Source of the DNA: Acidimicrobiia bacterium
GTDB lineage: Bacteria > Actinomycetota > Acidimicrobiia > Spongiisociales > ZC4RG35
Direction: 5' to 3'
DNA length: 64,000 nt
NCBI GenBank assembly: GCA_035462175.1
Contig: DATHUP010000065.1
Span: 64,771 to 128,770 of the forward strand
Shown piece by piece: positions 1 to 26,779 of this stretch. Under the pieces are notes generated by a model. It worked only from the letters and a program-made list of their open reading frames with translations. It was not told the origin of the DNA and searched no databases. The position numbers and the translations under genes are program-made. Within the stretch, counting starts at the first letter, position 1. Every line of letters starts with the position of its first letter.

Positions 1-1311
1 GTTGGCCACGAAGATGCTGCAGTTCATCGCCCGAGCCATCCGAGTGATGGTCTCGACATTGGTGCTGTGGATCGAGGCGGTATGACGGAAACCGTGCTCG
101 GAGCGCACCGCCAGGTCGATTGCGTCGTCGACGTTGCGCACCCGCACCACAGGCATCACCGGCATCATCTGCTCGGTCCAGACCAGGTTGTGCTCCCGGG
201 GCACCTCGGCGACGAGGAGCCTGGTGTCGGCATTGGCGCTCACCCCGATCTCGGCCAGGATCTTGGCCGCGTCCTGGCCGATCCACCTCGGTTCGATCAT
301 CCCGGGCTTCCCCGGCGGCCCCATCTCCTTGAAGATCACCCGCTCCAGACGCTTCAACTCGTGCTCTTTGAGCCGGTAGGCGCCGGCGCCGACCATTGCC
401 TGCACCAGTCGATCGGCCACGGTGTCGACCACGATCGTCGTCTTCTCGTCGGTGCAGATCACGTTGTTGTCGAACGACGCGCCTTTGACGATGGCTCGGC
501 CCGCGCTGTCGATGTCGGCAGTCTGGTCGACCACGGCAGGCGGGTTGCCCGGCCCGGCGGTGATCGCCTTCTTGCTCGTCTCCAGGGCCTCCTTGACCAC
601 ACCGGGGCCCCCGGTGACGAGGAGGACCCGCACGTCCGGGTGGTTCATCAGCTCCTTGGCCGATTCCAGGGTCGGAGCGGGTATGGCGGTGATCAGGTCG
701 GGCGGCCCACCGGCGCCGACGATGGCCCGGTTGAGGAGCTGGACGTTCTCGACCGAGACCATGCGGGCGCTGGGGTGGACGTTGAATGTGACCGCGTTCC
801 CGGCGGAGACGATGGAGATGGCGTTGTTGATGATGGTCGAAGTGGGGTTTGTGGTCGGCGTGATCGACCCGATGACGCCGTAGGGTGCGTATTCGGTGAC
901 CATCATCCCGGCGTCACCGGTCACCACCTGCGGCTCCAGGTCTTCGGGCCCGGGGGTGCGTGTCGTCACAAGACGGTTCTTGATCGCCTTGTCCTCGCCC
1001 CTGCCCAAACCGGTCTCCTCGGCGGCCATGTAGGCCAGTCGCTCCCCCTCCCGAAGCATGGCGGCGCGCATTGCCTCGACGATGTCCTTCCTGGCCTCGA
1101 GCCCCATCTCCCGGTAGTCGATGAAAGCGGCCTGCGCCGCGGCCACGGCCTGGTCGATGTCGGCGTGGATTCCGTCCCCGAGTTGCGCGTCGGAGAAGGC
1201 GAGCTCGTCCGAGGCGCGCAAAACAGGTGCGGCCCGCTCCGCCATCTCGGCGGTGGCGACCCGGCCCTTGACCCGCTCGATGATGGCCTGGATCTCGGTG
1301 TCGCTCAGCAT
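1..1311 (-). CDS. CoA-acylating aldehyde dehydrogenase (PduP/EutE type), C-terminus cut by window edge
   Basis: Absent from the ORF track because it runs off the window. My minus-strand translation from ATG 1311 gives MLSDTEIQAIIERVKGRVATAEM...GVIGSITPTTNPTSTIINN...VTGGPGVVKEAL...GASFDNNVICTDEK...HGFRHTASIHS, with no stop down to position 1. Catalytic-Cys context NNVIC. The start lies 2 nt after the BMC-P stop. Confidence 0.9.
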   Translation of the reverse strand, partial: MLSDTEIQAIIERVKGRVATAEMAERAAPVLRASDELAFSDAQLGDGIHADIDQAVAAAQAAFIDYREMGLEARKDIVEAMRAAMLREGERLAYMAAEETGLGRGEDKAIKNRLVTTRTPGPEDLEPQVVTGDAGMMVTEYAPYGVIGSITPTTNPTSTIINNAISIVSAGNAVTFNVHPSARMVSVENVQLLNRAIVGAGGPPDLITAIPAPTLESAKELMNHPDVRVLLVTGGPGVVKEALETSKKAITAGPGNPPAVVDQTADIDSAGRAIVKGASFDNNVICTDEKTTIVVDTVADRLVQAMVGAGAYRLKEHELKRLERVIFKEMGPPGKPGMIEPRWIGQDAAKILAEIGVSANADTRLLVAEVPREHNLVWTEQMMPVMPVVRVRNVDDAIDLAVRSEHGFRHTASIHSTNVETITRMARAMNCSIFVAN

Positions 1312-1313
1312 GG

Positions 1314-1625
1314 TTACCCGGTGGGCGCCTCCTCCCGGCCCTTGTGATAGCGCTCCTCACCACTCACGTCCCACGAGTCGACGATGGCCATGATCACCGC
1401 GTCCACCGGGCGGTCGCGGGTCAGCTCGGTCTGACGCGCCGAGCTGCCCGATGCGTAGAGCACCACTTCGCCGACTCCCGCCCCGACCGCGTCGACCGCC
1501 ACGACGTAGCTCCCGGTGTCGGCATTGTCCGCGTCGAGTTGACGGACGACGAGGAATTTCATCCCCTCCATGAGGGGCTCCTTGCGGCTGGCGACGAGAG
1601 TCCCAGCGACCCTGCCTAGATGCAC
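1314..1625 (-). CDS. BMC-P pentameric vertex protein (EutN/CcmL family)
   Basis: 103 aa. [15 protein letters not shown]...FLVVRQLD...[25 protein letters not shown] is the typical EutN/CcmL pattern. It lies inside the BMC operon. Confidence 0.9.
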
Positions 1626-1658
1626 CGTGCCATCTCCTGCCTCGTTGGCTGGTACGGG

Positions 1659-1961
1659 CTAACCGAGGTCTTCCTGCGCCTGATCCTGACGACCGAGCGG
1701 AAGGACCAGGTCGATGTTGACATGAGGCCTGGCGATGACATGAGTGGCGATCACTTCGCCCACCTTCTCAGCGCCGCGCACCCCGGCGTCGACCGCCGCC
1801 TTGACCGCGGCCACGTCGCCGCGGACCACCGCGGTCACGTAACCGCCTCCAGTCTTCTCCATGCTCACCAACTCCACCTTGGCCGCCTTGACCATGGCAT
1901 CGGCCGCCTCCACCATTGCCGGGAAGCTGCGAGCCTCGATCATTCCCAGAGCTTCAGCCAT
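1659..1961 (-). CDS. BMC-H hexameric shell protein (PduA/EutM-like, single BMC domain)
   Basis: 100 aa. [60 protein letters not shown] is a canonical BMC (PF00936-type) domain. Confidence 0.92.
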
Positions 1962-1996
1962 GAAGCTCCTCCTTTCGTTGTGTTCTCTTCACCGAC

Positions 1997-2647
1997 TCAA
2001 CCCGAACCGCCGGCATCCCGACCGGACAGACCCTCCAGCGCCGCTACCGCCGCCTGCCAGCCGACGTCGATGTCCCGCTCCTCTCCGCCCAGGTACACCC
2101 GACCCATCGAGCCGAAGCTGCGCACCTCGAGCACGTTGATCTCGGCCGCCTTCTCCCCCTCGTTGGCAGCAAGAGATGCATAGGCGGCAGGCTCACACTC
2201 GAGCACGTACAGGGTTTGGCCGGGGATGATCATCTGGCCGTGACGGGTCCGGTTGATCAGCTGGGCATGATGATCGTCGAGACGACGGATGATCTGGGAG
2301 GAGAGGATGCGAGGCTTGATCCGGTCGTCCTCGGTGGCCTCGATGGCGTCGAGGATGGCGGCACCGGCGGCCCGGGTCTCGGCCTGGTCAGGCGAGTGAA
2401 CCTCGAGCACCCCGTAGTAGCGCTCGATGATCTGCAGCCCGGGCTTGACCGAGGTCGCCTTCAATGCGACGTCGGAGAGCCGGTTGATCTCGATCCCGGG
2501 GGCGACCTCGACCCAGAGGGAGGCGTCGTTGGCCAGGGGAAGGAAGCCCTGGGCCACCGTCCCGAGGAATGCGGCGTATTGCGGCTGGAGGCTGTCCAGG
2601 AACGCAAACGACCTCAGCTCAATACCTCTCGCCACCTCTACCTCCAT
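1997..2647 (-). CDS. BMC-T tandem-domain shell protein (CcmP/CsoS1D-like)
   Basis: [48 protein letters not shown]...[48 protein letters not shown]. Two roughly 100-aa halves resemble CcmP/CsoS1D as I recall them. Start taken at ATG 2647; GTG 2635 (preceded by GGAGG) is an alternative. The ORF-track start at 2698 is rejected because its N-terminus is R/S/P-rich and overlaps deoC. Confidence 0.85.
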
Positions 2648-3452
2648 CCTTGCCGCCGACGATCTCGATCCCGGCCGAGGCTCCGATTCTGGTCGCACCG
2701 GCGGCGATCATGTCCTCGGCATCGCCGGTGGTGCGCACCCCGCCCGAGGCCTTCACTCCCATCTCCGGGCCGACCGTCTCCCTCATCAGCGCCACGTCGT
2801 ACACCGTGGCCCCCCCGGGACCGAACCCGGTCGAGGTCTTGACGAAGTCCGCCTTGGCCCGCTTGGCCAGGGCCGATGCGATCACCTTCTCCTCGTCGGA
2901 GAGCAGGGCCGTCTCCAGGATCACCTTGCACAGGGCGCCCACCTCGTGGGCGGAGTCGACCACCTTCTCGATGTCCTTGAGCACAAGGTCGTGATCGCCC
3001 GACTTGAGGGCGCCGATGTTCAACACCATGTCGACCTCGCGGGCACCGTCGCGCAACGCACGACGCGCCTCCATCGCCTTCACCTCCGGAGTCGTCGCCC
3101 CCAGGGGGAATCCGATCACACTGCACACCGCCACCGGCGTGCCCCGCAGGTTCTCCGCCGCCCGCTTCACCCAAGTGGGATTGATGCACACCGAGGCGAA
3201 GTGGTACTGCTCCGCCTCACGGCAGAGCCGGTCGATGTCGGAGGCGGTCGCCTCCGGCTTGAGCAGGGTGTGGTCGATGTAGCGGGCCATGTCGAGGGGG
3301 ACCTCCGCCGCCTCGCCGTGGAACGCCACCCGGTCCGCCCCGTTGGCCACCACTTCCCGGACCTTGTCCCCGGTGTCGCAGACGTCATACCGTGCGGAGA
3401 GGGCGGCTAGCACCTCACGGGTGACCATCTCGACTAGGGCATCCCGGTTCAT
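2619..3452 (-). CDS. deoC: deoxyribose-phosphate aldolase (DERA) with an N-terminal extension of about 40 aa
   Basis: [12 protein letters not shown]...[10 protein letters not shown]...[11 protein letters not shown]...[15 protein letters not shown]...[10 protein letters not shown]...FVKTSTGFG match the DeoC family, including the Schiff-base Lys context [11 protein letters not shown] 3452 overlaps the upstream stop as ATGA. Confidence 0.9.
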
Positions 3453-4078
3453 CCTGTTTCCTGTCTCATCCCTGCCGGGGAGTATTGCCGTTCGATGGCA
3501 TCGATCTTGGCAACCCTCCGGGCGTGTCTGTCGCCACCCCATTCCACGGACAGCCACTCCTCGACGATCTGCCAGGCAAGGGCATCGCCGACCAACCCCG
3601 CCCCGAGGGTGAGCACGTTGGCGTGGTTGTGCTCCCGGCTGTTACGGGCCGAGGAGAGGTCGTAGCAGAGGGCCGCCCGCACTCCGGGCACCTTGTTGGC
3701 CACCATCGCCGAGCCGATACCGGCACCGTCGACCACGATCCCGTAGCGACAGGCGCCGGAGGCGACCTCACGAGCGACCGCATGGGCGAAGTCGGGATAG
3801 TCCACCGCATCGTGTGAGTTGGTCCCGCAGTCGAGCACCTCGTAGCCGGCTTCCTTCAGCTTGAAGCCGATCTTCTCCTTGAGGGGATATCCGCCGTGGT
3901 CGGCCCCGATGGCGATCCTGGTCTTTTCGTCTCCTCCGGACGCGGCCGGTTCCCGATGATCGGGATGGCCCTCGGAATCCGCGGGGTGCTCGGAGCCGAC
4001 GACTCCTTCGAGGACACGCTCGACGAGGGAACGGACCTCTTGTTCGGAGGGTGAGCCCGGACCTGCACGGTGTGTCAT
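3449..4078 (-). CDS. RpiB/LacA/LacB-family sugar-phosphate isomerase with a 53-aa N-terminal extension
   Basis: [17 protein letters not shown]...YEVLDCG...VDYPDFA...[28 protein letters not shown]...[14 protein letters not shown] is the RpiB pattern. It is preceded by [53 protein letters not shown]. Confidence 0.85.
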
Positions 4079-4162
4079 CTGGCTGGGTAAGTCCTCCTCA
4101 CCGCGCCCATCCTAGGAACATGGAGGTAGGCCCACAGTGCCGGCCGGCGCCAGGTTCGTAAG

Positions 4163-4858
4163 ATGCGAGACATGGCCGATCGGGACCCTGCCTTCCTCTG
4201 GGAGACCGAAGTGCTCCGCACCTCGGCCCGGCCGCCGTCGTCGCCACCGCCCCCGACGGGTACAACGGAGCGCAACGACTGGCTGACTCTCCGCCGGGCC
4301 AGTGAGGTCACCGGGGTCCCGGTCTCGACGCTGCGCACCTGGGCTCGAAAGGGGAAGATCCCGACCACCCTCGACGACACGCCCTCGGGCCCACGGCGGA
4401 TGGTCTCCTTGCAGGGCGTGGAAGAGCGGGCGCGGCGTTTGGGCCACGAGGTGGGAGAAATGGGTGAGGCCCGCCACGAGCCGGAGCTCGCCGCGAAGCC
4501 GGCCGCGCCGGCCGGGTCGGATCAGATCTCCCCGCCTCCGGGAACGATGCTCGTCCCCATCGACGCCTGGGACAAGATGCTCCTCCAACTCGGCAATCTG
4601 CACCAGGCCGGCCAGCAGCTGGCCGAGGCGAGGGAGCGCGCCGCCCGGGCCGAGACCGAGGCGGCATTTCTCAGGGAGCGTCTCGCCGAGTTGCGGGAGC
4701 CGAAACCCGGCGAGGAGGAGGAGTCAGGTCCGCATCTCCCCGTCGGAGATGCGCCCTCGGATCATGAAGAGCCTGAAGCAGTGAAGCCACCCTCGAAGAT
4801 GCCTTCCTTCACCGCGTACCTGTGGCGGTTGGCGGTGTCCGAGCGTCGTCGAAAGTGA
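4163..4858 (+). CDS. MerR/excisionase-type HTH protein with a C-terminal coiled coil (candidate regulator, divergent from the BMC operon)
   Basis: WLTLRRASEVTGVPVSTLRTWARKGKIP is an HTH_17/MerR-like helix-turn-helix. The C-terminal LLQLGNLHQAGQQLAEARERAARAETEAAFLRERLAELRE is heptad-like. Confidence 0.6.
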   Translation: MRDMADRDPAFLWETEVLRTSARPPSSPPPPTGTTERNDWLTLRRASEVTGVPVSTLRTWARKGKIPTTLDDTPSGPRRMVSLQGVEERARRLGHEVGEMGEARHEPELAAKPAAPAGSDQISPPPGTMLVPIDAWDKMLLQLGNLHQAGQQLAEARERAARAETEAAFLRERLAELREPKPGEEEESGPHLPVGDAPSDHEEPEAVKPPSKMPSFTAYLWRLAVSERRRK

Positions 4859-4867
4859 CGACTCTGG

Positions 4868-5947
4868 TCAGGCGGTAGGGCCGCTGATCAGACGGTAGGT
4901 GATGTCTTGGTCGAGAGTCATGTCCATGACGAACCCGATCATCTCCCCGGTCGTCTCGTCGGGCATGTTCATGTCCATCGAGATGTCGGTGGACGAGTTC
5001 GTCTCTGATTGGCGGGCCAAACCGGCCTCGACATCGAACCAGGTCTTGCTGTCGGCGGTGGTGCCGTCGACGCGGATCAAGAACTGGAGCTGGTCGAGCA
5101 TCGCGTCGAGCTCGGCCGTCTCCTCGGCGGTCGCATCCTCGGCGAAGGCGCCGAACATGCCGGCGAAGAACTGGGCGAGATCGAACTCGATCAAAGAGGT
5201 AGTCGAGTTGGTGTCGATCACGTAGACCTCGGTCCCGTCGAGATCTTCGGTCCCGGTGACCGTGCTGGAGATGCTGGTGACGATGGGGTTCCCGCCAAGG
5301 CCGGGCGTCTCGATTTCGTCTGTCCAGGTATCCCCGACCGCGACCTCCTCATCGGAGAAGGAAGGGCCGACGAATTGCCCGGGATCGAGACCGGGAGCCG
5401 GGGCGCCGCCTCCCAGTGGCCCCAGGTCGCCGAACATCCCGGTTAGGGGGTCTTCGGCACCGGCTGGGCCTTCCTCGACGAGGTTGCCCTGCTCGTCGAC
5501 GACGACGGTGACATCGATCGGGTCCAGGGAGGCGAAGTCGGGGGCTTCCTCAGACTCAAACGGCTCACCATCGACCGTGCCGGTCACGGTCACGCCGCCG
5601 AACTCCCCGGTTATGTTCACCTCGAAGGTGCCGGGCTCGGGGCCTTCGGAGACGACATGCGTGAATGTGGCGGTGCCGGCCAGGTCGATCGACGCCTCCC
5701 CGGGCACCTCCTCGCCACCCATGAGCGAGGGGTTACCGGAGGCATTCAGCTCGATGTGCTGGTCCAAGTCGACTTCGTACTGGTACTCGTCGCCGGCACT
5801 GAGCGAATAGGAGAGGAGGACAGCCTCCACCTGCGGTGCGGTCGTGGTGGTGGTGTCCTCGGAGGAGGTGGTCGTCGAGTCCGAAGTCTGGGCACAGGCG
5901 GCCAGGACGAGGGCCAGCGCGGAGAGGATGGAGAGTTGACGCTTCAT
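4868..5947 (-). CDS. secreted lipoprotein, unknown function, highly acidic
   Basis: MKRQLSILSALALVLAAC contains a lipobox and is followed by a Thr/Ser-rich linker. The mature part is D/E/T/G-rich. No family recognised. Confidence 0.75.
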   Translation of the reverse strand: MKRQLSILSALALVLAACAQTSDSTTTSSEDTTTTTAPQVEAVLLSYSLSAGDEYQYEVDLDQHIELNASGNPSLMGGEEVPGEASIDLAGTATFTHVVSEGPEPGTFEVNITGEFGGVTVTGTVDGEPFESEEAPDFASLDPIDVTVVVDEQGNLVEEGPAGAEDPLTGMFGDLGPLGGGAPAPGLDPGQFVGPSFSDEEVAVGDTWTDEIETPGLGGNPIVTSISSTVTGTEDLDGTEVYVIDTNSTTSLIEFDLAQFFAGMFGAFAEDATAEETAELDAMLDQLQFLIRVDGTTADSKTWFDVEAGLARQSETNSSTDISMDMNMPDETTGEMIGFVMDMTLDQDITYRLISGPTA

Positions 5948-6015
5948 TTGGACACGTTATCGGTATGCGGGGGCTTTCCTTTTAGCGCTTAGTCGCGTTG
6001 TACCGTCCTGGCCGC

Positions 6016-6924
6016 ATGAATCCGTGGACCCCGCTCGTGGTGGCGACCCTCGGGTGGGGCACGGCAGCCGTGCTCACTCGGGCCCTGCTCAACAGCGGTG
6101 TGTCGACTTTCATCGTCGTCCCGATGCGGTTCGGCATCGCCCTCGCCCTCCTCCTCGTCGTGTCCCGGTTCTGGAAGCGGTTCGACGCGCCCGATCGGCG
6201 ACATTGGAAGCGGGGGTTGATCCTCGGTGGGGTGGCCCTGGCCCTGCCCAACACCTTGTTCACGTTGGGCCTCGAGGATCTCCCGGTGAGCCTGGGCGGG
6301 CTTCTCATCGCACTGATCCCAATCGCGACGGTGGGCGGCGCCCACTTCCTGGTGGAGGGTGAGCGGTTCAACCCGCGGTCGGTCCCCGGGCTGGTGGTGT
6401 CGCTGGTCGGGACCGGGATCCTGGTCGGCGTCGGCGGAGGGGCGCTGGAGGGAGTGGGCAACCTTTGGCGCGGGGTGGGGGTGTCCCTTGTCGCCGTGGT
6501 CCTGGCCGGCGCCGGCGGCGCCTTGACCCGTCGTTTCGCGCTCGAAGTCGGTGGCGACGGCCTCGTCATCCCCCAGTTCGCCATTGCCACCGCGATCAGC
6601 CTGGCCGCGGTGCCCTTTCTCAACACCACCCCCGTGTCGACCATCGAGCCCTCGGAGTGGGCGCTGCTCATCGCGCTCGGGGCAATCGCCACGGCGGTGC
6701 CGTTCAGCGCCTTCCTGGTCGCGGCCCAGATCAACCTGGCGTCCCGTCTCGCTGTGGTCGGATACGTGGTGCCGGTGATCGCCGTGGCCCTGGCCGTGGT
6801 CTTCCTCGGCGAGACGCTGACCGTTCCCATCGTCGTGGGTGCGATCCTGATCCTCGCCGGCGTGATGCTCACCGAGCGTTCCACCCGTCACGTTCCCGTC
6901 CCCGGGGTCAACATCGCGAGGTGA
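6016..6924 (+). CDS. EamA/DMT-family transporter
   Basis: Polytopic hydrophobic pattern with two EamA-like halves (LGWGTAAVLTRALL..., ...LGAIATAVPFSAFLVAAQ). ATG 6016 chosen (MNPWTPLVV); the ORF opens at TTG 5998. Confidence 0.8.
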   Translation: MNPWTPLVVATLGWGTAAVLTRALLNSGVSTFIVVPMRFGIALALLLVVSRFWKRFDAPDRRHWKRGLILGGVALALPNTLFTLGLEDLPVSLGGLLIALIPIATVGGAHFLVEGERFNPRSVPGLVVSLVGTGILVGVGGGALEGVGNLWRGVGVSLVAVVLAGAGGALTRRFALEVGGDGLVIPQFAIATAISLAAVPFLNTTPVSTIEPSEWALLIALGAIATAVPFSAFLVAAQINLASRLAVVGYVVPVIAVALAVVFLGETLTVPIVVGAILILAGVMLTERSTRHVPVPGVNIAR

Positions 6925-6940
6925 CGGGACCGCCGTCCGC

Positions 6941-7058
6941 AACCTGAGGTTCCACGTAACGCATATGCAACGAACTCTCTCCGGTTCACCTGGGCGCGTC
7001 AGGCAGTTCGGAAACTCGAGAGCGTTTGTAACGGATATGAAACGCAGAACCTCAGGTT
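6941..7058. repeat. 118-bp TIR-flanked intergenic repeat, copy 1
   Basis: The ends AACCTGAGGTTC (6941) and GAACCTCAGGTT (7058) are perfect 12-bp inverted repeats. Imperfect arm pairing extends to about 41 bp. Internal direct 17-mers are GTAACGCATATGCAACG (6956-6972) and GTAACGGATATGAAACG (7028-7044). A second copy lies in inverse orientation at 43658-43808. Confidence 0.7.
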
Positions 7059-7083
7059 CGAAGTGGCGTTTACCCTCCGGGGG

Positions 7084-8721
7084 ATGAGTCGTCGGATACT
7101 GGTTGCGGTCGGCTGGCCCTATGCGTCGGGATCGCTCCATCTCGGGCACCTGGGCGGGGCTTATCTGCCCGCGGACATCTTCGCCCGATACCACCGGATC
7201 GCCGGCAACGACGTGCTGATGGTGTCGGGGTCCGACGCCCACGGGACGCCGATCACGGTCAAGGCCGACGAGGAGGGGATCAGCCCTCGCCAGGTGGTCG
7301 AGCGGTACCACCCCGAGATCGTGGGTTATTGGGACTCGCTGGGAATCTCGTTCGACCTGTTCACCACCACGATGACCGAGAACCACGCCGCGGTGACACA
7401 GGACGTGTTTCTCCGTCTGCTGGAGAAGGGATACTTGGTCAAGAGAACGACCACCCAGTATTACGACCCGGAGGCCGAGCGGTTTCTCCCGGACCGCTAC
7501 GTCGAAGGGACCTGCCCCCACTGTGGCTACACGCAGGCCCGGGGAGACCAGTGTGAGAATTGTGGGCGCACCCTCGACGCCATCGACCTGATCGACCCCC
7601 GTTCCCGTCTGACCGGGTCGACGCCAGTGCTCAAGGAGACCGAGCACTTCTTCTTCAAACTGCCCGAGTTCGCCGAGCCGTTGCGGGAGTGGCTGGAGTC
7701 GAAGTCCAACTGGCGCCGGCATGTGAGGAACTGGGCGCTGGCGATGATCGCAGAAGGCATGCCCGAGCGCGCCATCACCCGGGACATCGAATGGGGCGTG
7801 GAGGTGCCGGTCGACGATCTCGGGCAGGGCAAGCGGATCTACGTCTGGTTCGACGCCGTCATCGGCTATCTGAGCGCAGCCAAGGAGTGGGCCGCCACGT
7901 CGGGGGAACCCGACGCGTGGAAGCGATGGTGGGAGGATCCCGAGGCCGAGTCGTATTATTTCGTCGGCAAGGACAACATCCCCTTCCACGCCGTCATGTG
8001 GCCGGCGATGCTCATGGGATACGGTGGGCTCAACCTGCCAACCGACGTGCCTGCCAACCAATTCATCACGTTCAAGGGGATGAAGGCGTCGAGATCCCAG
8101 GGTGTTGGATTGCCCATCAGTTGGTATGCCGAGCGACTCGAGCCCGATGCCATCCGCTATGCGATAGCCACCGTGCTCCCAGAGCAGAACGACACGGACA
8201 TCAGCGACGACGACATCATCCGACGGGTCAACGAGGAGCTGGTTTCAACCTGGGGCAACCTGGTCAATCGCGTCCTCTCGATGAGCGAGCGGAACTTCGA
8301 TGGCCAGGTACCACCCAGAGGATCGCTCACGGCCATCGACGAGGCGCTGCTTTCCTCGGTGGACAAGACGTTGCAGACGACGGCCGGCCACATCGAGGCC
8401 GTGGAGCTGAGGGCCGGCTTGCGCACCGCCATGGACTCGGCAGCGGACGTCAATGCCTATCTGAACTCCGAGGAGCCCTGGCACGCGATCAAAGAGGATC
8501 GGGACCGTGCCGGCACCATCCTCTGGACCGCGATCCAGGCCATCTCGGGGATCAGGGTGGCCCTGGCCCCCTACTTGCCGTGGAGCACTTCCCGGCTCGG
8601 CGAGATGCTCGGCATCGGCGCCGTGACCGGTTGGGAGCGGCCCGACATTCCGGGAGAGGCACGGCTGGGCCGGGTCACGACCCTGTTCGACAAGCTGGAG
8701 CCCGACGCCCTCGACGACTGA
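7084..8721 (+). CDS. metG: methionine--tRNA ligase
   Basis: WPYASGSLHLGHL (HIGH motif), Zn knuckles CPHCGY...CENCG, and the KMSKS-like GMKASRSQG. ATG 7084 preferred over GTG 7063. Confidence 0.93.
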   Translation: MSRRILVAVGWPYASGSLHLGHLGGAYLPADIFARYHRIAGNDVLMVSGSDAHGTPITVKADEEGISPRQVVERYHPEIVGYWDSLGISFDLFTTTMTENHAAVTQDVFLRLLEKGYLVKRTTTQYYDPEAERFLPDRYVEGTCPHCGYTQARGDQCENCGRTLDAIDLIDPRSRLTGSTPVLKETEHFFFKLPEFAEPLREWLESKSNWRRHVRNWALAMIAEGMPERAITRDIEWGVEVPVDDLGQGKRIYVWFDAVIGYLSAAKEWAATSGEPDAWKRWWEDPEAESYYFVGKDNIPFHAVMWPAMLMGYGGLNLPTDVPANQFITFKGMKASRSQGVGLPISWYAERLEPDAIRYAIATVLPEQNDTDISDDDIIRRVNEELVSTWGNLVNRVLSMSERNFDGQVPPRGSLTAIDEALLSSVDKTLQTTAGHIEAVELRAGLRTAMDSAADVNAYLNSEEPWHAIKEDRDRAGTILWTAIQAISGIRVALAPYLPWSTSRLGEMLGIGAVTGWERPDIPGEARLGRVTTLFDKLEPDALDD

Positions 8722-8771
8722 GGGACCGATTTCCCTCCGCTCTACATTCTCCGCGCCGATAAGATCCCGTC

Positions 8772-8957
8772 ATGAGTCGTGTCGCCCGAATTGCCGGCGG
8801 ATTCACCCTCATCGGGGCAGGCACCGTGATGCTCGTGCTGCCCGGCCCCGGCCTGGTCACCATCTTCGGCGGCCTCACTCTGCTGGGAAAAGACCTGCCC
8901 TGGGCCAAGCGCGTCACCGACGCGGTGAAACGCCGGGCCGTGAACCGGGACCGCTGA
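8772..8957 (+). CDS. small PGPGW-motif membrane protein
   Basis: 61 aa with two hydrophobic helices flanking VLPGPGLV. Confidence 0.6.
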   Translation: MSRVARIAGGFTLIGAGTVMLVLPGPGLVTIFGGLTLLGKDLPWAKRVTDAVKRRAVNRDR

Positions 8958-8965
8958 GCGAGTCT

Positions 8966-9373
8966 CTAGTTGGGCGGGTAGACCCCGGCGTCCTTGGCCT
9001 TGTCCGTCTGCCAGAAGATGTCTGCGATCTCGTCGATCAGCTCCACCAGCTTCCGCCCGTCCTCAGGGTCGACCGACTTCTTGGCGTTCCCCGCCTGGAG
9101 GATCGCCCGCCAGAACAGGTCGTCGAGGTTGGAGAACTCCTTGCGATGATCGGCGGTGAAGAAGTCGACCCAGAGCACCATCAGATGGTGTTTGACCAAC
9201 TCGGCCCGCTCCTCCTTGATCATGATCGCCCGATCGCGAAACACCTCGTCATCCGAGGCCTGGTACTTCTCGGCCGACTTGAGGACCGACATGGCCTCGA
9301 TCTTGGCCTGAGCCGGGTCGTACACCCCGCAGAAGAGATCGCAGTGGGCGTGGGCAACCGTTATCTGCCGCAT
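8966..9373 (-). CDS. sodN: nickel superoxide dismutase precursor
   Basis: MRQITVAHA|HCDLFCGVYDPAQAKIEA. This is the Ni-hook HCxx(P)CGxY directly after a short leader ending in Ala. ATG 9373 chosen; the longer ORF-track N-terminus is rejected. Confidence 0.9.
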   Translation of the reverse strand: MRQITVAHAHCDLFCGVYDPAQAKIEAMSVLKSAEKYQASDDEVFRDRAIMIKEERAELVKHHLMVLWVDFFTADHRKEFSNLDDLFWRAILQAGNAKKSVDPEDGRKLVELIDEIADIFWQTDKAKDAGVYPPN

Positions 9374-9417
9374 GGCACTCCTTCGTTGTCGACGTGGACC
9401 TTCGACCATACCCTGCA

Positions 9418-10389
9418 ATGACGATTCCCATGCAGCGGTTCCGTGTCTCCGAGGACTCGATGCGGCCAACTCTCGTTCCCGGCGACGAGTTCGTCGTCAC
9501 CGGGTCCCGGACGCCGGTGGTCGGCGACATCGTGACTCTGCCTCACCCGGATCGGCCCGACTTCTGGCTGGTCAAGCGGCTCAAGGCCGGCCCCGGAAAC
9601 CGGGTCGACGGGCGGGCGCTGGGGGCGGGTGAGGCCTGGGTGACGTCGGACAATCCGAGGGTCGAGACAGCCGACTCGAACCGGTTCGGCGTGGTGCCGA
9701 TGGCGTCTCTCAAAACCATGGTGACCCGATTCGACGAGACCACATTCCTCGAGGCAGTCGCCCTGCTCAGCAACGAGGAGCCGCCCTTCGCCAGGGTCGT
9801 CGAGGTGCTCGGCCCGCCGCCTTTCTGGCAGCGACCCGCCGGTTTTCCCACCCTGGTCTGGCTGATCATGGAGCAGCAGGTCTCCCTCGAGTCCGGAGCG
9901 GCGATGTACCGGAGACTCCATGGCCTGCTCGGGACTATCACCCCTGAAGCCGTGGCCGGGTCGTCGGACGCCGACCTCCGCGCCATCGGCGTGACCAGGC
10001 AGAAGACGGCTTATCTGCTCGAGTTGGCCAGTTCGATCGTCACCGGCGAGCTCGACCTCGCCGCCCTGGGGGAGGAGACCGTGGTAGATGCGAGACGGAC
10101 ATTGCTCTCGATCAAGGGGATCGGCCCCTGGACCGCCGACGCCTACCTGCTCTCGGCCCTACGCTTCCCCGACGTCTTCCCGGTCGGCGATCGCGCCCTC
10201 CAGGTGGGGACGGCGGAAGTCCTCGATCTCGCCTCGGCCCCGCCCCCCGACGATCTGGACATGCTCTCCTCCCCGTGGCGGCCGGTCCGGGCCGCGGCGG
10301 CCCGCATCATCTGGCACGCCTACCTGAAAACGAGGGGTCGAGTGGAGCCCTCCGACCCGACGGCGGACTCGGGGCACACACCGCTCTGA
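9418..10389 (+). CDS. fusion of a SodX-type S26 peptidase (Ni-SOD maturation protease) with an HhH-GPD DNA glycosylase (AlkA/Mag-like)
   Basis: The N-terminal part, RVSEDSMRPTLVPGDEFVV...GDIVTLPHP...FWLVKRL...WVTSDNP...DSNRFGVVP, carries the S26 Ser/Lys motifs and resembles SodX. The C-terminal part, FPTLVWLIMEQQVSLESGAAMYRRL...GVTRQKTAYLLELA...IKGIGPWTADAYLLSALRFPDVFPVGD, is an HhH-GPD domain. It is one open frame with no internal stop. The start is uncertain (GTG 9394, ATG 9418 or ATG 9430). Confidence 0.75.
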   Translation: MTIPMQRFRVSEDSMRPTLVPGDEFVVTGSRTPVVGDIVTLPHPDRPDFWLVKRLKAGPGNRVDGRALGAGEAWVTSDNPRVETADSNRFGVVPMASLKTMVTRFDETTFLEAVALLSNEEPPFARVVEVLGPPPFWQRPAGFPTLVWLIMEQQVSLESGAAMYRRLHGLLGTITPEAVAGSSDADLRAIGVTRQKTAYLLELASSIVTGELDLAALGEETVVDARRTLLSIKGIGPWTADAYLLSALRFPDVFPVGDRALQVGTAEVLDLASAPPPDDLDMLSSPWRPVRAAAARIIWHAYLKTRGRVEPSDPTADSGHTPL

Positions 10390-10407
10390 CCGGCGTAGAG
10401 TCGGGTC

Positions 10408-10809
10408 ATGACCGAGTTCGTGGTCCGGATGGAGAACCGTCCCGGCCGACTTGCGACGTTGACCGAAGCTCTGGCCGCATTCGGGGTCAACATCGAGGCG
10501 CTGGCGGCGTACGGTCACGACGGAGAGGGGACCGTCCGCCTCATCGTCGACGACGCCCCCACCACTCGCCGGGTCCTCGAAGAGGCCGCCCTCCACAACG
10601 AGGAGCACAAAGTGCTCACCGCTCAGCTCCCCCACCGACCCGGTGAGCTGGCCCGGCTCACCCGGCTACTGGCGGATGCCGGAGTCAACATCGACGCAAT
10701 CTACGTGCTGCGCTCCAACGCAGAAGGGATCGAATTCGCGATCTCGATAGACCAGGGCGACGAGGCGGTGCCCGACCTGCCCATCACCGGCGGCGCATTG
10801 GTGGTCTAA
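10408..10809 (+). CDS. tandem ACT-domain protein
   Basis: Two repeats of the ACT pattern: VVRMENRPGRLATLTEALAAFGVNIEAL and LTAQLPHRPGELARLTRLLADAGVNIDAI. Confidence 0.75.
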   Translation: MTEFVVRMENRPGRLATLTEALAAFGVNIEALAAYGHDGEGTVRLIVDDAPTTRRVLEEAALHNEEHKVLTAQLPHRPGELARLTRLLADAGVNIDAIYVLRSNAEGIEFAISIDQGDEAVPDLPITGGALVV

Positions 10810-10837
10810 GCCCTGCGGGGCGATACTCTGCCGCCGC

Positions 10838-11968
10838 ATGTGGTCCAAACTCGTCGAATTCGTTCGCGCCCGAAAAGCCCTGTCCATCGCCATCGCCGCA
10901 GTCGTGCTGCTCGTTGCCGGAGGAGCCATCTTCATGGCCGTCCGCGCCGACCCGGAGGTCCCCACGACCACCACCAGCCCTCCGCCGACCTCGACCACCA
11001 TGGCGGAGACGACTACGAGCCTGGCCACCTCCACGACGGTCGGCGGCGCGACGTCCCAGATCAACGGCCTCCCGGTCGCAGACCCCGAGCTGCTCGATCG
11101 CCGGCTCCTCGCGGTCAAGATCGACAACCACCCCGACGCCAGGCCGCACTCGGGGATCGAGGACGCCGACGCAGTCATCGAGCTCATGGTCGAGGGCGTT
11201 ACCCGCTTCATCTCCATGTGGCAGCAGAGCGACTCCGAGTTTCTCGGCCCGATGCGATCGGGTCGCCCGACGGATCAGACCCTCCTCGCCTTCTTCAACG
11301 AGCCCAGCTTCGCCATCTCCGGAGCGCAGAGCTGGGTGCAGAACATGATCCGCAGCGTCGGCATCCATCTAGTCGGCGAGGTGGAGCCGGGCACCTTCCG
11401 CGTCCGGGGCCGAAGAGCCCCCCACAACCTCTTCACCAACACGATCCTGCTGCGGGAGTACGCGGACGCCCAGGATCACCCCGATGAGCCGATCGACGGG
11501 CCGATGTGGGTGTTCGGCCCGATGCGTGAGGATGCCGAAGAGGCGAGCAAGGTCTCATTCGACTTCCTGGGCAACCCCGTCGAATGGACCTGGGACGAGA
11601 CCACGGGGATGTGGCTCCGCACCCTCGGGGGCGAAGAGTCGATCACGGTCACCGAGGACGAGGACGAAGACGGGAACGAAGACGGGAACGAGGACGAGAA
11701 CGGGAGCCAGATCGCCTTCCCGGTGCTGGTCGCGCTCTACGTGGAGCAGTACACCGTGGGGGACCTTCCCGCCAGCCGCACTGCGGGCCAGGGCCTGGCT
11801 TACGTCTTTGCCGAGGGCAAGGTGGTCCAGGGCACCTGGCAACGCGACGACATCGACGAGTGGTTCACCCTGGAGGACAACGACGGCGCGACGATCGAGG
11901 TCCCACCCGGTCAGGTTTGGATCTCGCTGATCCCGAACACGACGGGGATCGTGATCGAGCCGAGCTGA
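10838..11968 (+). CDS. membrane-anchored DUF3048-family protein
   Basis: N-terminal TM helix, then a Thr/Pro/Ser linker, then LAVKIDNHPDARPHSGIEDADAVIELMVEGVTRF, which is typical of DUF3048. An acidic EDEDEDGNEDGNEDENG insert is present. Confidence 0.75.
   Translation: MWSKLVEFVRARKALSIAIAAVVLLVAGGAIFMAVRADPEVPTTTTSPPPTSTTMAETTTSLATSTTVGGATSQINGLPVADPELLDRRLLAVKIDNHPDARPHSGIEDADAVIELMVEGVTRFISMWQQSDSEFLGPMRSGRPTDQTLLAFFNEPSFAISGAQSWVQNMIRSVGIHLVGEVEPGTFRVRGRRAPHNLFTNTILLREYADAQDHPDEPIDGPMWVFGPMREDAEEASKVSFDFLGNPVEWTWDETTGMWLRTLGGEESITVTEDEDEDGNEDGNEDENGSQIAFPVLVALYVEQYTVGDLPASRTAGQGLAYVFAEGKVVQGTWQRDDIDEWFTLEDNDGATIEVPPGQVWISLIPNTTGIVIEPS
11666..11689 (+). repeat. perfect 12-bp tandem duplication (GAAGACGGGAAC x2) inside the DUF3048 gene
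   Basis: Read directly. Encodes the in-frame EDGN-EDGN within an acidic low-complexity insert. Confidence 0.6.
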
Positions 11969-13400: not shown

Positions 13401-15275
13401 GTGGTCGACGAGATCGCCACCTCTGACCCTTCAACCACAGCCCATACCGAGACCCTAGACAAAGTAGTGATCCGATTCGCCGGAGACTCCGGCGACGGGA
13501 TGCAGGTAGCCGGATCGAGATTCACCGACGCCAGCGCCCTCTTCGGGAACGACTTGGCCACCCTCCCCTCGTTCCCGGCAGAGATACGCGCCCCGGCAGG
13601 AACCCTTCCCGGCGTCTCCAGCTTCCAGGTCCAAATCGCCGACTTCGACATCCTGACCGCGGGCGACCAACCCGATTGCCTGGTTGCGATGAACCCCGCG
13701 GCGCTGAAGAAGAACCTGAAGGACCTAAGGCAGGGGGGAACGCTGATCATCAACAGCGACTCCTTCGAGGAGCGCAACCTGGCCAAGGCCGGTTACGACA
13801 CCAACCCTCTCGAAGACGGCACCCTGGAGGGCTTCCGGGTCATCAAGGTGCCCATGGACGAGCTGACAAAGGAAGCGGTCAAGGACACGGGAGTCTCCGG
13901 GCGCAGCGTCCTTCGCTCCAAGAACTTCTTCGCCCTGGGCCTCCTCGCCTGGTTGTTCCACCGCCCCACCGAGCCGACCATCGACTGGGCGAGGAAGAAG
14001 TTCGCCCGCACCCCCGAGGTGGCGGAGGCCAACGTCGCCGCATTCCAGGCCGGCTACACGTTCGGTGTCGCCACGGAAGCGGCCAAGATCACCTTCGAGG
14101 TCAAGCCGGCCGCCCTGCGCCCGGGCACCTACACCAACGTGAACGGCAACACCGCCCTGGCCTGGGGGCTGATCGCAGCCTCCCGACTCTCCGGGCTGCC
14201 GTTGTTCTACGGCAGCTACCCGATCACGCCCGCATCGGACATCCTCCACGAGCTGGCCCGGCACAAGAACTTCGGCGTTCGGACCTTCCAGGCGGAGGAC
14301 GAGATCGCAGGAGTGGGCACTGCCATAGGCGCCGCCTTCGCCGGTAGCCTCGCCGTCACCGGTTCCTCGGGCCCTGGCATCGCCCTCAAGAGCGAGGCGA
14401 TCTCTCTGGCCTTCATGATGGAGCTGCCCCTCATCGTCGTCAACGTGCAGAGGGGCGGGCCCTCGACCGGGCTGCCCACCAAGCCGGAGCAATCCGACCT
14501 CCTCTTCTCCCTCTACGGACGTCATGGCGAATCACCCATCCCCGTGCTCGCCATCGCCTCGCCGTCGGATGCCTTCGAAATGACCATCGAGGCGGCTCGC
14601 ATCGCCCTCAAATACATGACCCCGGTGCTCCTCCTCAGCGACAACCAGGTAGCCAACGGCTCCGAGCCGTGGATGCTGCCCGACGTGAGCTCTCTCCCCC
14701 CTATCGAGGTCGAGTTCGCACGGCATCCGAACGGTCCCAACGGCGCCTTCCTCCCCTACATGCGGGATGTGGACACGTTCGCCCGCCCCTGGGCCGTTCC
14801 CGGCACCCCCGGTCTCGAGCATCGGATCGGCGGTCTGGAGAAGGAGGCCATCACCGGGAATGTGTCCTACGACCCGGCCAATCACCAGCTGATGACCGAT
14901 TCCCGGGCCTGGAAGGTGGCAAACATCGTCAACGACGTGCCCGACCTGGTGGTGGACGGTGACGAGGATGCCGATCTGCTGGTGCTGGGATGGGGATCGA
15001 CCTTCGGCTCGATCCGGGCTGCGGCGCGCCGGGTGAGGCTGGACGGGGGCAGGGTGGCCACCACCCATCTCCGTCATCTCAACCCGCTGCCGCGGAACCT
15101 GGGCGAGGTTCTCAATCGGTACGAGAAGATCCTGATCCCCGAGCTGAACACGGGTCAGCTGCGCAAGGTGATCAGGGCCGAGTTCCTGGTCGACGCCAAG
15201 GGCCTGAACAAGGTCGCCGGCGAGCCGTTCAAGATCTCGGAGATCTCGGAAAGAATCGTGGAGATGAGCAAGTGA
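13401..15275 (+). CDS. korA: 2-oxoglutarate/2-oxoacid:ferredoxin oxidoreductase, alpha subunit
   Basis: 624 aa. VIRFAGDSGDGMQVAG...GSYPITPASDILHELA...QAEDEIAGVGTAIGAAFAG. GTG start preceded by AAGGAAG. Confidence 0.9.
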   Translation: MVDEIATSDPSTTAHTETLDKVVIRFAGDSGDGMQVAGSRFTDASALFGNDLATLPSFPAEIRAPAGTLPGVSSFQVQIADFDILTAGDQPDCLVAMNPAALKKNLKDLRQGGTLIINSDSFEERNLAKAGYDTNPLEDGTLEGFRVIKVPMDELTKEAVKDTGVSGRSVLRSKNFFALGLLAWLFHRPTEPTIDWARKKFARTPEVAEANVAAFQAGYTFGVATEAAKITFEVKPAALRPGTYTNVNGNTALAWGLIAASRLSGLPLFYGSYPITPASDILHELARHKNFGVRTFQAEDEIAGVGTAIGAAFAGSLAVTGSSGPGIALKSEAISLAFMMELPLIVVNVQRGGPSTGLPTKPEQSDLLFSLYGRHGESPIPVLAIASPSDAFEMTIEAARIALKYMTPVLLLSDNQVANGSEPWMLPDVSSLPPIEVEFARHPNGPNGAFLPYMRDVDTFARPWAVPGTPGLEHRIGGLEKEAITGNVSYDPANHQLMTDSRAWKVANIVNDVPDLVVDGDEDADLLVLGWGSTFGSIRAAARRVRLDGGRVATTHLRHLNPLPRNLGEVLNRYEKILIPELNTGQLRKVIRAEFLVDAKGLNKVAGEPFKISEISERIVEMSK

Positions 15276-16300
15276 CCTCCCCGTCGTACACACGCGCCGA
15301 CTTTCAGACCGACCAGGAGGTGCGCTGGTGCCCCGGATGCGGCGACTACACCATCCTCGCCTCGGTGCAGCAGTTCCTCGCCGGTCTGGGCCGACCACGC
15401 GAGGAGTTCGTCTTCGTCTCCGGAATCGGTTGTGCAGCCCGTTTTCCCTACTACATGAACACCTATGGGATGCACTCGATCCATGGCCGCGCCCCGGCCA
15501 TCGCCTCGGGCATCGCCTCGACCCGGCCCGAGCTCTCGGTATGGGTGATCACCGGTGACGGGGACGCCCTCTCCATCGGGGGCAATCACCTGATCCATGT
15601 CCTGCGCCGTAACGTCGACCTCAAGATCCTGTTGTTCAACAACCAGATCTACGGCCTCACCAAGGGGCAGTACTCACCGACGTCCGAGGCGGGGAAGACC
15701 ACCAAGTCCTCGCCATACGGGTCGATCGACTACCCGTTCAACCCGGTCTCCCTGGCACTGGGAGCCGAGGCGACCTTCGTGGCCAGGACCCTGGACATGG
15801 ATCGCAACCACACCCAGGACCTGCTCCGGGCCGCCTACGAGCACGAGGGCTCCGCTTTCATCGAGATCTACCAGAACTGCAACGTCTTCAACGACAAGGC
15901 GTTCATCCAGCTCACCGGGAAAGAGGAGCGGGTCCACAACCGGATCGACCTCGAGGCAGGGAAGCCGGTCGTTTTCGACGGCGGGGCCAAGGCCGTGGTG
16001 CTGCGCGACGGCCAGGCGACCATCGTCGACTCGTCGTCGGTCGACCCCGGGGCGATCCTGGTCCACGACCCCACACGGCCCGACCCGGCCGTCGCATTCG
16101 CACTGAGCCGCCTCTCCCACGGCCCCTATGGGCCCACCCCGCTGGGCATCTTCCGCGACGTGAGCCGACCTACCTATGAGGGCCAGATGAATGCCCAGAT
16201 CGAGGCCGCTCGCGAGAAGCAAGGGGATGGGGACCTGTCCGCTCTGATCGCCAGTCATGGCACCTGGACGGTCAAGGACCCCTCCTCCAACGGGGGCTGA
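15272..16300 (+). CDS. korB: 2-oxoglutarate/2-oxoacid:ferredoxin oxidoreductase, beta subunit (TPP-binding)
   Basis: WCPGCGDYTIL...ITGDGDALSIGGNH...NNQIYGLTKGQ. GTG 15272 overlaps the korA stop as GTGA. The ORF-track N-terminus in this frame is rejected. Confidence 0.9.
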   Translation: MTSPSYTRADFQTDQEVRWCPGCGDYTILASVQQFLAGLGRPREEFVFVSGIGCAARFPYYMNTYGMHSIHGRAPAIASGIASTRPELSVWVITGDGDALSIGGNHLIHVLRRNVDLKILLFNNQIYGLTKGQYSPTSEAGKTTKSSPYGSIDYPFNPVSLALGAEATFVARTLDMDRNHTQDLLRAAYEHEGSAFIEIYQNCNVFNDKAFIQLTGKEERVHNRIDLEAGKPVVFDGGAKAVVLRDGQATIVDSSSVDPGAILVHDPTRPDPAVAFALSRLSHGPYGPTPLGIFRDVSRPTYEGQMNAQIEAAREKQGDGDLSALIASHGTWTVKDPSSNGG

Positions 16301-16323
16301 CGGCGATCGCCTCACGGTGTGCG

Positions 16324-19681: not shown

Positions 19682-19691
19682 CTGCGCCTCC

Positions 19692-20621: not shown

Positions 20622-20636
20622 GCCCGGAGAATAACA

Positions 20637-20654
20637 CGAACGAACGTTCGTTCG
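20637..20654. promoter_or_regulatory. perfect 18-bp palindrome CGAACGAACGTTCGTTCG, candidate PaaR (TetR) operator
   Basis: Read directly. It lies 16-33 nt upstream of the paaA ATG and contains two overlapping matches to CNAACGNNCGTTNG, a PaaR-type consensus as I remember it. Confidence 0.5.
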
Positions 20655-20864: not shown

Positions 20865-20882
20865 TCGTTGTGCGGCGCCCTC

Positions 20883-26778: not shown

Positions 26779-26779
26779 C

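Follow-up and report, generated by a model that had tools for sequence, protein, structure and literature searches.

Bacterial microcompartments (BMCs) of the SPU (sugar-phosphate-utilizing) type are recognized by their signature enzyme, the deoxyribose-5-phosphate aldolase (DERA) (PMC11585597), and seven SPU subtypes are distinguished in Supplementary Data 2 of Sutter et al. 2021. The present work concerns an operon of this kind from an uncultured, high-GC soil actinobacterium of the Acidimicrobiia (assembly GCA_035462175.1, contig DATHUP010000065.1). It occupies positions 1-4078 on the minus strand of the stretch of 64,000 nt that was analyzed (referred to in its entirety as the window; G+C content 65-69%) and is cut off by the left edge of that stretch. 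The locus very probably represents an SPU-type BMC of subtype SPU3, with a nine-gene operon that follows the published SPU model mechanism; it is a new example of a catalogued type and not a new kind of system.

The only SPU enzymes to have been characterized are those of the SPU6 locus of Chloroflexi bacterium GWB2_54_36 (Dwyer, Sutter, Kerfeld 2024). Purified SPU6 DERA cleaves deoxyribose-5-phosphate (dR5P), and the companion protein related to ribose-5-phosphate isomerase B (RPI) possesses negligible ribose-5-phosphate isomerase activity and forms a stable complex with DERA at a ratio of ~1:1 (Dwyer et al. 2024; PMC11585597). In all SPU RPIs, Asp replaces Cys66, and the same authors proposed a packaging role for these proteins, as well as an exit of acetyl-CoA through the pore of the double-stacking trimer BMC-T(dp) in those subtypes that possess no phosphotransacylase (PTAC) (PMC11585597). 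An earlier note on this DNA, which called the role of the isomerase unexplained, is dated in this respect. Its statement that no SPU compartment has been isolated still stands for native compartments in the literature searched, but SPU-type shells from Hodarchaeales have been reconstituted in the meantime (bioRxiv 10.1101/2025.11.08.687404). The Hodarchaeales operons, which were acquired from Myxococcota, share the core of DERA and acylating aldehyde dehydrogenase (AldDH) with the locus studied here, and a substrate dR5P derived from DNA was proposed for them; they differ by the presence of two hexamer proteins (BMC-H), PduS/MNdh, PTAC, a flavoprotein-fused DERA and a DNA-binding tail on one of the pentamer proteins (BMC-P). 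The Eut and Pdu metabolosomes follow the same paradigm, in which an aldehyde is made within the shell and trapped as acyl-CoA by an acylating AldDH; the present locus differs from them in its signature enzyme, has no B12 dependence, and lacks PTAC and alcohol dehydrogenase for the recycling of CoA and NAD+.

Subtype SPU3, as described by Sutter et al. 2021 (Supplementary Data 2), contains as enzymes only AldDH, pf02502 and pf01791, in that order, with N-terminal extensions on AldDH and DERA. In its shell, a single standard BMC-H is combined with a BMC-P triplet, with a BMC-T(dp) that is CcmP-like, and with a BMC-T(s) that has neither a PduS partner nor a pore cysteine; the hosts include Actinobacteria, Chloroflexi and Acidobacteria. 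In the T(dp) tree of these authors, the clade 'Tdp_bland_ccmPlike' corresponds to SPU3 main loci from metagenome-assembled genomes (MAGs) of high-GC Actinobacteria and Chloroflexi, among them Actinobacteria RBG_16_68_12 and RBG_16_70_17 and Chloroflexi RBG_16_72_14.

Operon layout and assignment to a subtype

Six minus-strand open reading frames (ORFs) fill positions 1-4078 (Table 1), just where the earlier note had placed six co-directional genes separated by overlaps or by gaps of at most 35 nt; the observation of a tightly packed six-gene operon is real and is confirmed here. The stop codon of the RPI-like gene and the start codon of DERA share an ATGA at 3449-3452 (a 4-nt overlap). DERA and the BMC-T(dp) gene overlap by 17 nt when the latter is read from its GTG start, which is preceded by a GGAGG Shine-Dalgarno sequence at a distance of 5 nt, and by 29 nt when it is read from the ATG. 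The remaining intergenic gaps amount to 35 nt (BMC-T to BMC-H), 33 nt (BMC-H to BMC-P) and 2 nt (BMC-P to AldDH). The identities proposed for the six gene products (BMC-H, a CcmP/CsoS1D-like BMC-T, BMC-P, DERA, an RpiB-like protein and AldDH) are borne out by Pfam and PDB matches. Inside the window lie the N-terminal 437 of the 485 residues of AldDH; the C-terminus of the protein is encoded past the left edge.

Table 1. Features of the operon and of the region upstream of it, in window coordinates
Feature	Position	Strand	Details
RpiB/LacAB-family protein (RPI-like)	4078-3449	-	209 aa; Pfam LacAB_rpiB 9.7e-53; PDB RpiB matches
DERA, signature enzyme	3452-2619	-	277 aa; Pfam DeoC 9.9e-17
BMC-T(dp), CcmP-like tandem-domain gated trimer protein	2635 (GTG) or 2647 (ATG) to 1997	-
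BMC-H, hexamer shell protein	1961-1659	-	Pfam BMC 5.3e-29; sole BMC-H of the operon
BMC-P, vertex pentamer protein, first of three paralogues	1625-1314	-	Pfam EutN_CcmL 1.6e-29, full-length match
CoA-acylating AldDH (PduP/EutE class)	1311 to beyond position 1	-	Pfam Aldedh 5.3e-39
Putative operon -10 element TAGGAT (4114-4109) and GAGGAGG (4099-4093)	4093-4114	-	upstream of the RPI-like start
MerR-superfamily helix-turn-helix protein with coiled-coil segment, candidate regulator	4172-4858 (longest ORF from 4163)	+	weak, sub-threshold Pfam MerR and HTH_17

The leftward continuation of the operon, which the earlier note had anticipated, was read from contig L002 (ENA ERZ27272640 k141_112037, 121 kb), one of 23 contigs found by an exact-protein look-up of BMC-H; it is 99.9% identical to window positions 1-11,961 (over 11,961 nt). 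In L002, the gene for the complete 485-aa AldDH precedes those for a tandem BMC-T(s) of 202 aa and for two BMC-P proteins (91 and 96 aa), and 3' of the last of these lie an ECF sigma factor and then unrelated genes. The full operon consequently comprises nine genes in the order RPI-like, DERA, BMC-T(dp), BMC-H, BMC-P, AldDH, BMC-T(s), BMC-P, BMC-P. A three-protein shell, as noted previously, is thus a correct description of what the window contains, but not of the full operon, which encodes six shell proteins (one BMC-H, two kinds of BMC-T and three BMC-P).

Gene calls and Pfam searches of L002 covered 10 kb on either side of BMC-H (8.3 kb past the left edge of the window). Within 8 kb leftward, they revealed no PduL/Pta (PTAC), alcohol dehydrogenase or PduS, and no signature enzyme of a Pdu, Eut, GRM or RMM compartment, so that the extension brings in BMC-T(s) and two BMC-P without any enzyme of an already characterized type. 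A search of the whole 64-kb window for PduS and eutABC was equally negative, and the absence of PTAC and alcohol dehydrogenase reported for the visible part of the operon holds for both the leftward 8 kb of L002 and the 64-kb window. The set of enzymes in the locus, judged from the L002 extension and the window, is limited to AldDH, pf02502 and pf01791.

The assignment to the SPU class in the earlier note, made from the combination of DERA, an RpiB-type protein and an acylating AldDH with BMC-H, BMC-T and BMC-P genes, stands. Among the general features of SPU loci, DERA with its Asp/Lys/Lys residues, an adjoining RPI with the Cys-to-Asp replacement, and an acylating AldDH are present. At the subtype level, where typing was done by written descriptions and tree labels, and not by the catalogue hidden Markov models (HMMs; BMC Caller) or by sequence comparison with catalogued members, the locus agrees with SPU3 at every point of the written description: enzyme set and order, N-terminal extensions, single BMC-H, BMC-P triplet, T(dp), T(s) and host phyla. 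The same enzyme set, shell set and host phyla are found in the SPU3 loci of RBG_16_68_12 and Chloroflexi bacterium RBG_16_72_14. Two differences to SPU3 should be noted: RPI and DERA are fused in 12-20 catalogued loci but are encoded here by separate genes, and the divergently oriented MerR-like neighbor of this Acidimicrobiia clade is not mentioned in the SPU3 literature examined.

With SPU6, the locus shares a DERA carrying an extension and the D/K/K residues, an RPI with the Cys66-to-Asp replacement and an extension, adjacent RPI and DERA genes, three BMC-P, one BMC-H, one BMC-T(dp), and the lack of PTAC and PduS. One might consider that the locus is of type SPU6 or, alternatively, SPU2 or the compartment type of Haliangium ochraceum (HO) or MIC. 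Like SPU6, it is a compact operon without PduS, PTAC and, as is usual there, alcohol dehydrogenase, and the HO shell has a similar inventory of one BMC-H, T(s) plus T(dp), and three BMC-P, with the HO T(dp) being the next-best PDB match of the T(dp) protein studied here. However, the AldDH of SPU6 carries a C-terminal encapsulation peptide and belongs to the EUT2/EUT3 branch, whereas the AldDH of this locus has an N-terminal extension and is of the 5JFL type. Furthermore, the T(dp) of SPU6 falls into the blue clade, T(s) is missing there, and a EutQ-like protein of ~130 residues is present, in contrast to the CcmP-like T(dp) and the T(s) found here, and with gaps of at most 35 nt there is no room for a EutQ-like ORF in this operon. 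SPU6 loci are also restricted to Chloroflexi (Anaerolineae) and possess a GntR/UTRA regulator. SPU2 combines the BMC-P triplet with a fourth, green-clade copy and with T(s) proteins that mostly bear Cys, as opposed to three BMC-P and a His or Gln pore without Cys in this operon, and neither DERA nor RPI is present in the main locus of HO or of MIC. We therefore regard an assignment to any of these other types as very improbable and retain that to SPU3.

Shell proteins and cargo enzymes

The tandem BMC-T(dp) protein scores below the cut-off of PF00936 (18.8 versus 24.5 bits), but phmmer searches of the PDB match it to the solved structure of CcmP (4HT5) with E=8.5e-85 and 63% identity over 206 residues; because of this strong match, the sub-threshold score was not counted as a failure in the HMM test of the shell ORFs, which BMC-H and BMC-P passed outright. 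CcmP outranks the HO BMC-T (second-best), RMM and CsoS1D (4.7e-53) proteins, and a precomputed PF27545 CsoS1D_N domain is found on identical copies of the protein. The gate residues Glu69/Arg70 of CcmP align with Glu71/Arg72, which are invariant in 83 orthologues. The β-carboxysome protein CcmP (4HT5, 5LSR) thus has in common with BMC-T(dp) the tandem permuted BMC domains and the Glu-Arg gate; it serves, however, an anabolic, CO2-fixing compartment, whereas the BMC-T(dp) gene is part of a catabolic, aldehyde-processing operon.

BMC-H bears the interface motifs KAAK and ARPH and a conserved pore loop TGGGY, with varying K, and its amino acid sequence is 100% identical in relatives whose DNA is 84-90% identical. 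The three BMC-P paralogues, two of them adjacent at the end of the operon, share 34-42% identity with each other (38-42% between the first and the two terminal ones of L002) and are present in all related loci. BMC-T(s) (L002 12101-12709; Pfam BMC 1.3e-31, two domains) has PduT as its best PDB match (6.8e-31), followed by the HO BMC-T. In its pore loop, TVHPGK, a His occupies the position of the Fe-S cysteine of PduT, and across 71 orthologues this residue is His in 56, Gln in 15 and Cys in none. With three His residues at the pore of the trimer, metal coordination or an adjustment of the pore charge is conceivable.

The DERA protein matches PDB DERAs with E-values of up to 5.4e-83, in alignments that start only at residue 53. 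Its residues D141, K205 and K234 align with D102, K167 and K201 of the E. coli enzyme and are invariant in 86 orthologues. The E. coli DERA and RpiB sequences used for such comparisons are those which we take to be the reference sequences; as a consistency check, their numbering reproduces the published catalytic positions. The full-length AldDH of L002 is most similar to the BMC aldehyde dehydrogenase of R. palustris (5JFL; E=3.4e-123), scoring 415 bits to this type and 167 bits to the EutE type of Listeria (3K9D). Its catalytic Cys286, embedded in NNVICTDEK, is invariant in 75 orthologues, and the polypeptide stops with the core fold, i.e., it has no C-terminal extension.

All three cargo proteins begin with a conserved helix-like motif followed by a variable linker. 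The N-terminal extension comprises ~50 residues in DERA and ~53 residues in the RPI-like protein; in AldDH, the conserved segment spans residues ~4-18 (EIQAIIERVKGRV), with the variable linker and the catalytic domain behind it. The motifs read EVRxLVxRVL (RPI), LVExVTREVLAxL (DERA) and EIQxIIERVKGR (AldDH). These extensions may function as encapsulation peptides, a reading that is weak on its own. A low-confidence AlphaFold2 model of DERA, built from a shallow alignment of sequences that are 83-95% identical (mean pLDDT 67), shows the barrel with confidence and did not confirm the architecture of a helix plus two strands described for SPU DERA extensions.

Side observations concern the same part of DERA. 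A Cys-rich insert (CxxCxGxCAAxC) is found at about residues 25-45 of the N-terminal extension in cassettes of Chloroflexia, Thermoleophilia and Acidobacteriota (loci L049, L055, L059, L064, L073, L078, L084 and others); at least four Cys occur within the first 75 residues in 20 of the 86 orthologues, and three Cys in 17 of them. The insert resembles a binding motif for a metal or Fe-S cluster. It is absent at window positions 3452-3300, the clade of the window having lost it and kept a single Cys, and it is not mentioned in the SPU literature examined. In addition, three Chloroflexia MAGs (L076, L079, L081) encode downstream of the cassette a second DERA that is 42-44% identical, aligns only from residue 59, and hence has no extension.

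The conservation of the cassette was assessed by scanning a collection in which each GTDB species is represented by one genome, and the best 80 of at least 600 candidate stretches were kept as loci; 532 of the 600 candidate stretches listed encode a relative of DERA. All 80 loci stem from MAGs, mostly of Acidimicrobiia, with some from Thermoleophilia, Gaiellales, Chloroflexia and Acidobacteriota, and every one of them that is sufficiently long has the same order of the nine genes. Pairwise ratios of nonsynonymous to synonymous substitution rates (dN/dS) against three relatives lie between 0.008 and 0.29 for all nine genes, with BMC-H (0.008-0.07) and T(dp) as the most constrained. The genes of the operon are under purifying selection and, because of this and of the gene order conserved in 80 species-level genomes, the operon is no product of chance. 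That it is nonetheless a decaying or non-assembling remnant, with enzymes that operate free in the cytosol and no compartment, is a notion that could be entertained on the grounds that the enzymes for cofactor recycling are not encoded and that the cassette occurs among the 80 loci only in MAGs, with no cultured organism in which compartments have been observed. Yet the nine genes are without exception intact and show translational coupling, their dN/dS values (0.01-0.29) include an almost frozen BMC-H, their order is identical across MAGs of Acidimicrobiia, Thermoleophilia, Chloroflexia and Acidobacteriota, and the pore, gate and catalytic residues are invariant. We consequently give almost no credence to a remnant.

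The RpiB-like protein and the proposed pathway

When the RPI-like protein is aligned with E. coli RpiB, Cys66 is found replaced by Asp117 and Thr68 by Ala119, and His99 is retained (His150). Neither Asp117 nor Ala119 varies across 82 orthologues, and the same holds for the motifs DHG, DYP, GxGIGS..ANK, R.HN..NV and RH..R, which line the active site in RpiB structures. Within the same set of orthologues, 47 of the 149 positions aligned to E. coli RpiB are invariant, and they are concentrated in these motifs. Eight positions outside the dyad were checked (D9, H10, G67, G69, G71, H99, N100, R133) and are all invariant, for which P is ~6e-5 if invariant columns are placed at random; R137 is invariant too. 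Four related genomes additionally encode a second RpiB with the canonical VVCGSG (containing the catalytic Cys) and without an N-terminal extension. On the basis of the invariant dyad and motifs and of this separate canonical RpiB, sequence comparison marks the RPI-like protein of the cassette as a distinct and constrained paralogue. In these Acidimicrobiia MAGs (L024 15749-16204, L030, L040 and L047), the second RpiB is found on the minus strand, downstream of the cassette at a distance of ~3.5 kb.

Since the catalytic Cys/Thr pair is missing, a role other than that of an isomerase is envisioned. By analogy with the SPU6 pair, the RPI-like protein most likely functions as a core that binds DERA or as a packaging partner, rather than as a ribose-5-phosphate isomerase, and the pattern of conservation is compatible with a scaffold that acts through a conserved interface to DERA. 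One could instead imagine, still within an SPU compartment, that the protein is a working enzyme or a ligand-binding subunit in which Asp117 would be the base that acts on some sugar phosphate different from ribose-5-phosphate; in that case, the pathway would extend beyond dR5P in, glyceraldehyde-3-phosphate plus acetyl-CoA out. The 47 invariant positions, the eight retained ligand-site residues and a dN/dS of 0.12-0.24 for the RPI gene would fit such an enzyme, but the conserved surfaces could equally well represent the DERA-binding interface. M. tuberculosis RpiB works with a carboxylate base, which lends the idea some chemical precedent; on the other hand, dR5P has no 2-hydroxyl group, so that its aldose-ketose isomerization is impossible, and the neighboring genes point to no candidate substrate. 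Dwyer et al. 2024 (PMC11585597) assayed ribose-5-phosphate alone and left other substrates open, but the SPU6 homologue that they studied combines negligible isomerase activity with a stable DERA complex. We consider a catalytic or ligand-binding function, the chief alternative, to be rather unlikely, and prefer the interpretation as a partner of DERA. A further candidate role, that of a substitute for triose-phosphate isomerase, was dropped as a specific proposal because SPU1 loci encode both proteins.

As regards the substrate of the cassette, related loci of Chloroflexia are informative. In all 17 Chloroflexia-type loci, a co-directional regulator of the SorC family (Sugar-bind, PF04198) is positioned directly upstream of the cassette (e.g., L055 6345-7373, L064 6342-7313, L084 6381-7379, and 14 more loci). 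The DeoR repressor of B. subtilis responds to deoxyribose-5-phosphate. This deoxyribonucleoside regulator is the best solved match of the SorC-family protein (8R7Y, 4.4e-37). A PfkB sugar kinase is found by the cassette in L055, L065 and L074, and a NUDIX hydrolase adjoins it in L055, L064 and L065. The DeoR-like regulator and the PfkB kinase of these sister loci provide independent, if indirect, support for a deoxyribose-phosphate as the substrate of the SPU cassette.

In the mechanism that we propose for the SPU3 compartment, one hexamer, two kinds of trimers and three pentamer paralogues would, as judged from their homologues, build a polyhedral shell, to which the three cargo proteins would be recruited by their conserved N-terminal extensions. 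dR5P, the presumed substrate, would stem from the breakdown of DNA or deoxynucleosides and enter the shell, where it would be split into acetaldehyde and glyceraldehyde-3-phosphate by DERA, whose catalytic residues are present here and whose activity was demonstrated for the SPU6 homologue (PMC11585597). The acetaldehyde would be trapped by the acylating AldDH, the catalytic Cys of which is present, as acetyl-CoA with the formation of NADH. Because the operon encodes no PTAC, alcohol dehydrogenase or PduS, CoA and NAD+ would need to pass between the compartment and the cytosol, for which the large gated T(dp) pore is the most plausible route, as hypothesized by Dwyer et al. (PMC11585597). The RPI-like protein would participate as the DERA-binding core or packaging partner suggested by the SPU6 pair.

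Several points weigh against this interpretation. The compartment is known here from genes alone; three of the six shell genes and the C-terminus of AldDH were read from the near-identical contig L002, outside of the window, and the subtype rests on published descriptions rather than on catalogue HMMs. The substrate is deduced from DERA and from the regulators of related loci, none of them from this locus, and the 64-kb window contains no deo genes (nucleoside phosphorylase, phosphopentomutase, deoxyribokinase) and no pta, ack or adh. A purely structural role of the RPI-like protein is not easily reconciled with the strict conservation of its ligand-site motifs. With respect to the cargo extensions, the hydrophobic moment does not exceed that of shuffled sequences for DERA (0.52 of the shuffles reach the observed value) or AldDH (0.73) and is borderline for RPI (0.05), and the DERA extension has a pLDDT below 40 in the AlphaFold2 model, with a helix predicted at residues 3-19.

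Regulators, neighboring genes and wider meaning

The gene for the MerR-like protein is positioned immediately divergent to the RPI gene in 41 related loci, at a distance of ~50-260 bp (measured from the ends of tblastn high-scoring segment pairs), and ~20 of these 41 loci share no other flanking gene with the window. Because of this conserved divergent position next to RPI, we consider the MerR-like protein a candidate regulator of the locus. The family has 1265 homologues at E <=1e-5, annotated as hypothetical or MerR, and all those that bear an organism name derive from Acidimicrobiia MAGs; a search for solved relatives gave no informative hit. In the otherwise diverged intergenic regions of 15 loci, CCTAGGATG is the sole conserved block, and it is the evidence for the putative -10 element and the GAGGAGG of the operon. 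A second -10-like block (TAAGAT, 4159-4164) suggests a leaderless MerR transcript that would start at the ATG at position 4172. A scan of the nine-gene cassette for sigma-70 consensus sequences returned no promoter, that for intrinsic terminators a single terminator-like site on the minus strand, no more than expected by chance, and no inverted repeat was detected in the MerR-RPI intergenic region.

With a MerR-like protein in one lineage and a DeoR/SorC-type protein in another, the cassette appears to have swapped regulators between lineages, which we regard as a modest lead. A more far-reaching reading, in which a DERA-bound RPI within the shell would be a repurposed enzyme or sugar-phosphate sensor for an as yet unassayed substrate, and the MerR-like protein would control the cassettes of Acidimicrobiia where other cassettes have DeoR/SorC or GntR regulators, is speculative, and we consider it to be improbable as a whole.

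A transporter of the EamA/DMT family lies near the cassette in several contexts (window 5998-6924 on the plus strand, L049 6428-7357, L055 4242-5138); in L049 and L050, it lies directly upstream of the cassette and in the same orientation. The transporter may import the substrate; the copies are only ~30-35% identical and the linkage is inconsistent. Between the MerR-like gene and the transporter, the window encodes a very acidic predicted lipoprotein of 359 aa (4868-5947, minus strand; signal peptide plus Cys, followed by a Thr/Ser-rich linker), which has no Pfam match and is syntenic only in the closest relatives.

The remainder of the window is housekeeping chromosome, with genes for MetRS, Ni-superoxide dismutase, 2-oxoacid:ferredoxin oxidoreductase, paa and protocatechuate functions, F1Fo ATP synthase, SHMT, RF-1, Rho, ThrC, Ku, an ATP-dependent DNA ligase, Prs, GlmU and a sugar ABC transporter; Rfam and tRNA scans of the window detected only two tRNAs, both distant from the operon. 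The Ni-superoxide dismutase (Sod_Ni; 8772-9469) adjoins a 61-aa PGPGW membrane protein, and its longest ORF is extended at the N-terminus by ~30 residues when compared with the called gene. Positions 13401-30311 constitute an aromatic-catabolism neighborhood that includes the 2-oxoacid:ferredoxin oxidoreductase pair, a PaaABC-like oxygenase with reductase and TetR regulator, an FAD monooxygenase, CMD, the β-subunit of a protocatechuate dioxygenase, a class-II lyase (PF00206 Lyase_1), an α/β-hydrolase and two CoA-transferase subunits. Within 49129-51010, a tRNA-Arg(CCG) overlaps the 5' end of the longest Ku ORF (49173-50069), and the true start of Ku therefore lies downstream; Ku is convergent with the ATP-dependent DNA ligase (LigD-type ligase domain), and the two form a nonhomologous end-joining pair.

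SPU compartments count among the most widespread organelles of bacteria. The minimal SPU3 cassette, with its nine genes, shows strong conservation and is very common in uncultured Acidimicrobiia and Chloroflexia of soils and sediments. Its compactness makes it a candidate for synthetic reconstitution. Modest leads from the comparison of related loci are the strict constraint on the ligand site of the RPI-like protein and the exchange of regulators between lineages. The cassette also supports the view that deoxyribose derived from DNA is a carbon source for Acidimicrobiia and Chloroflexia.

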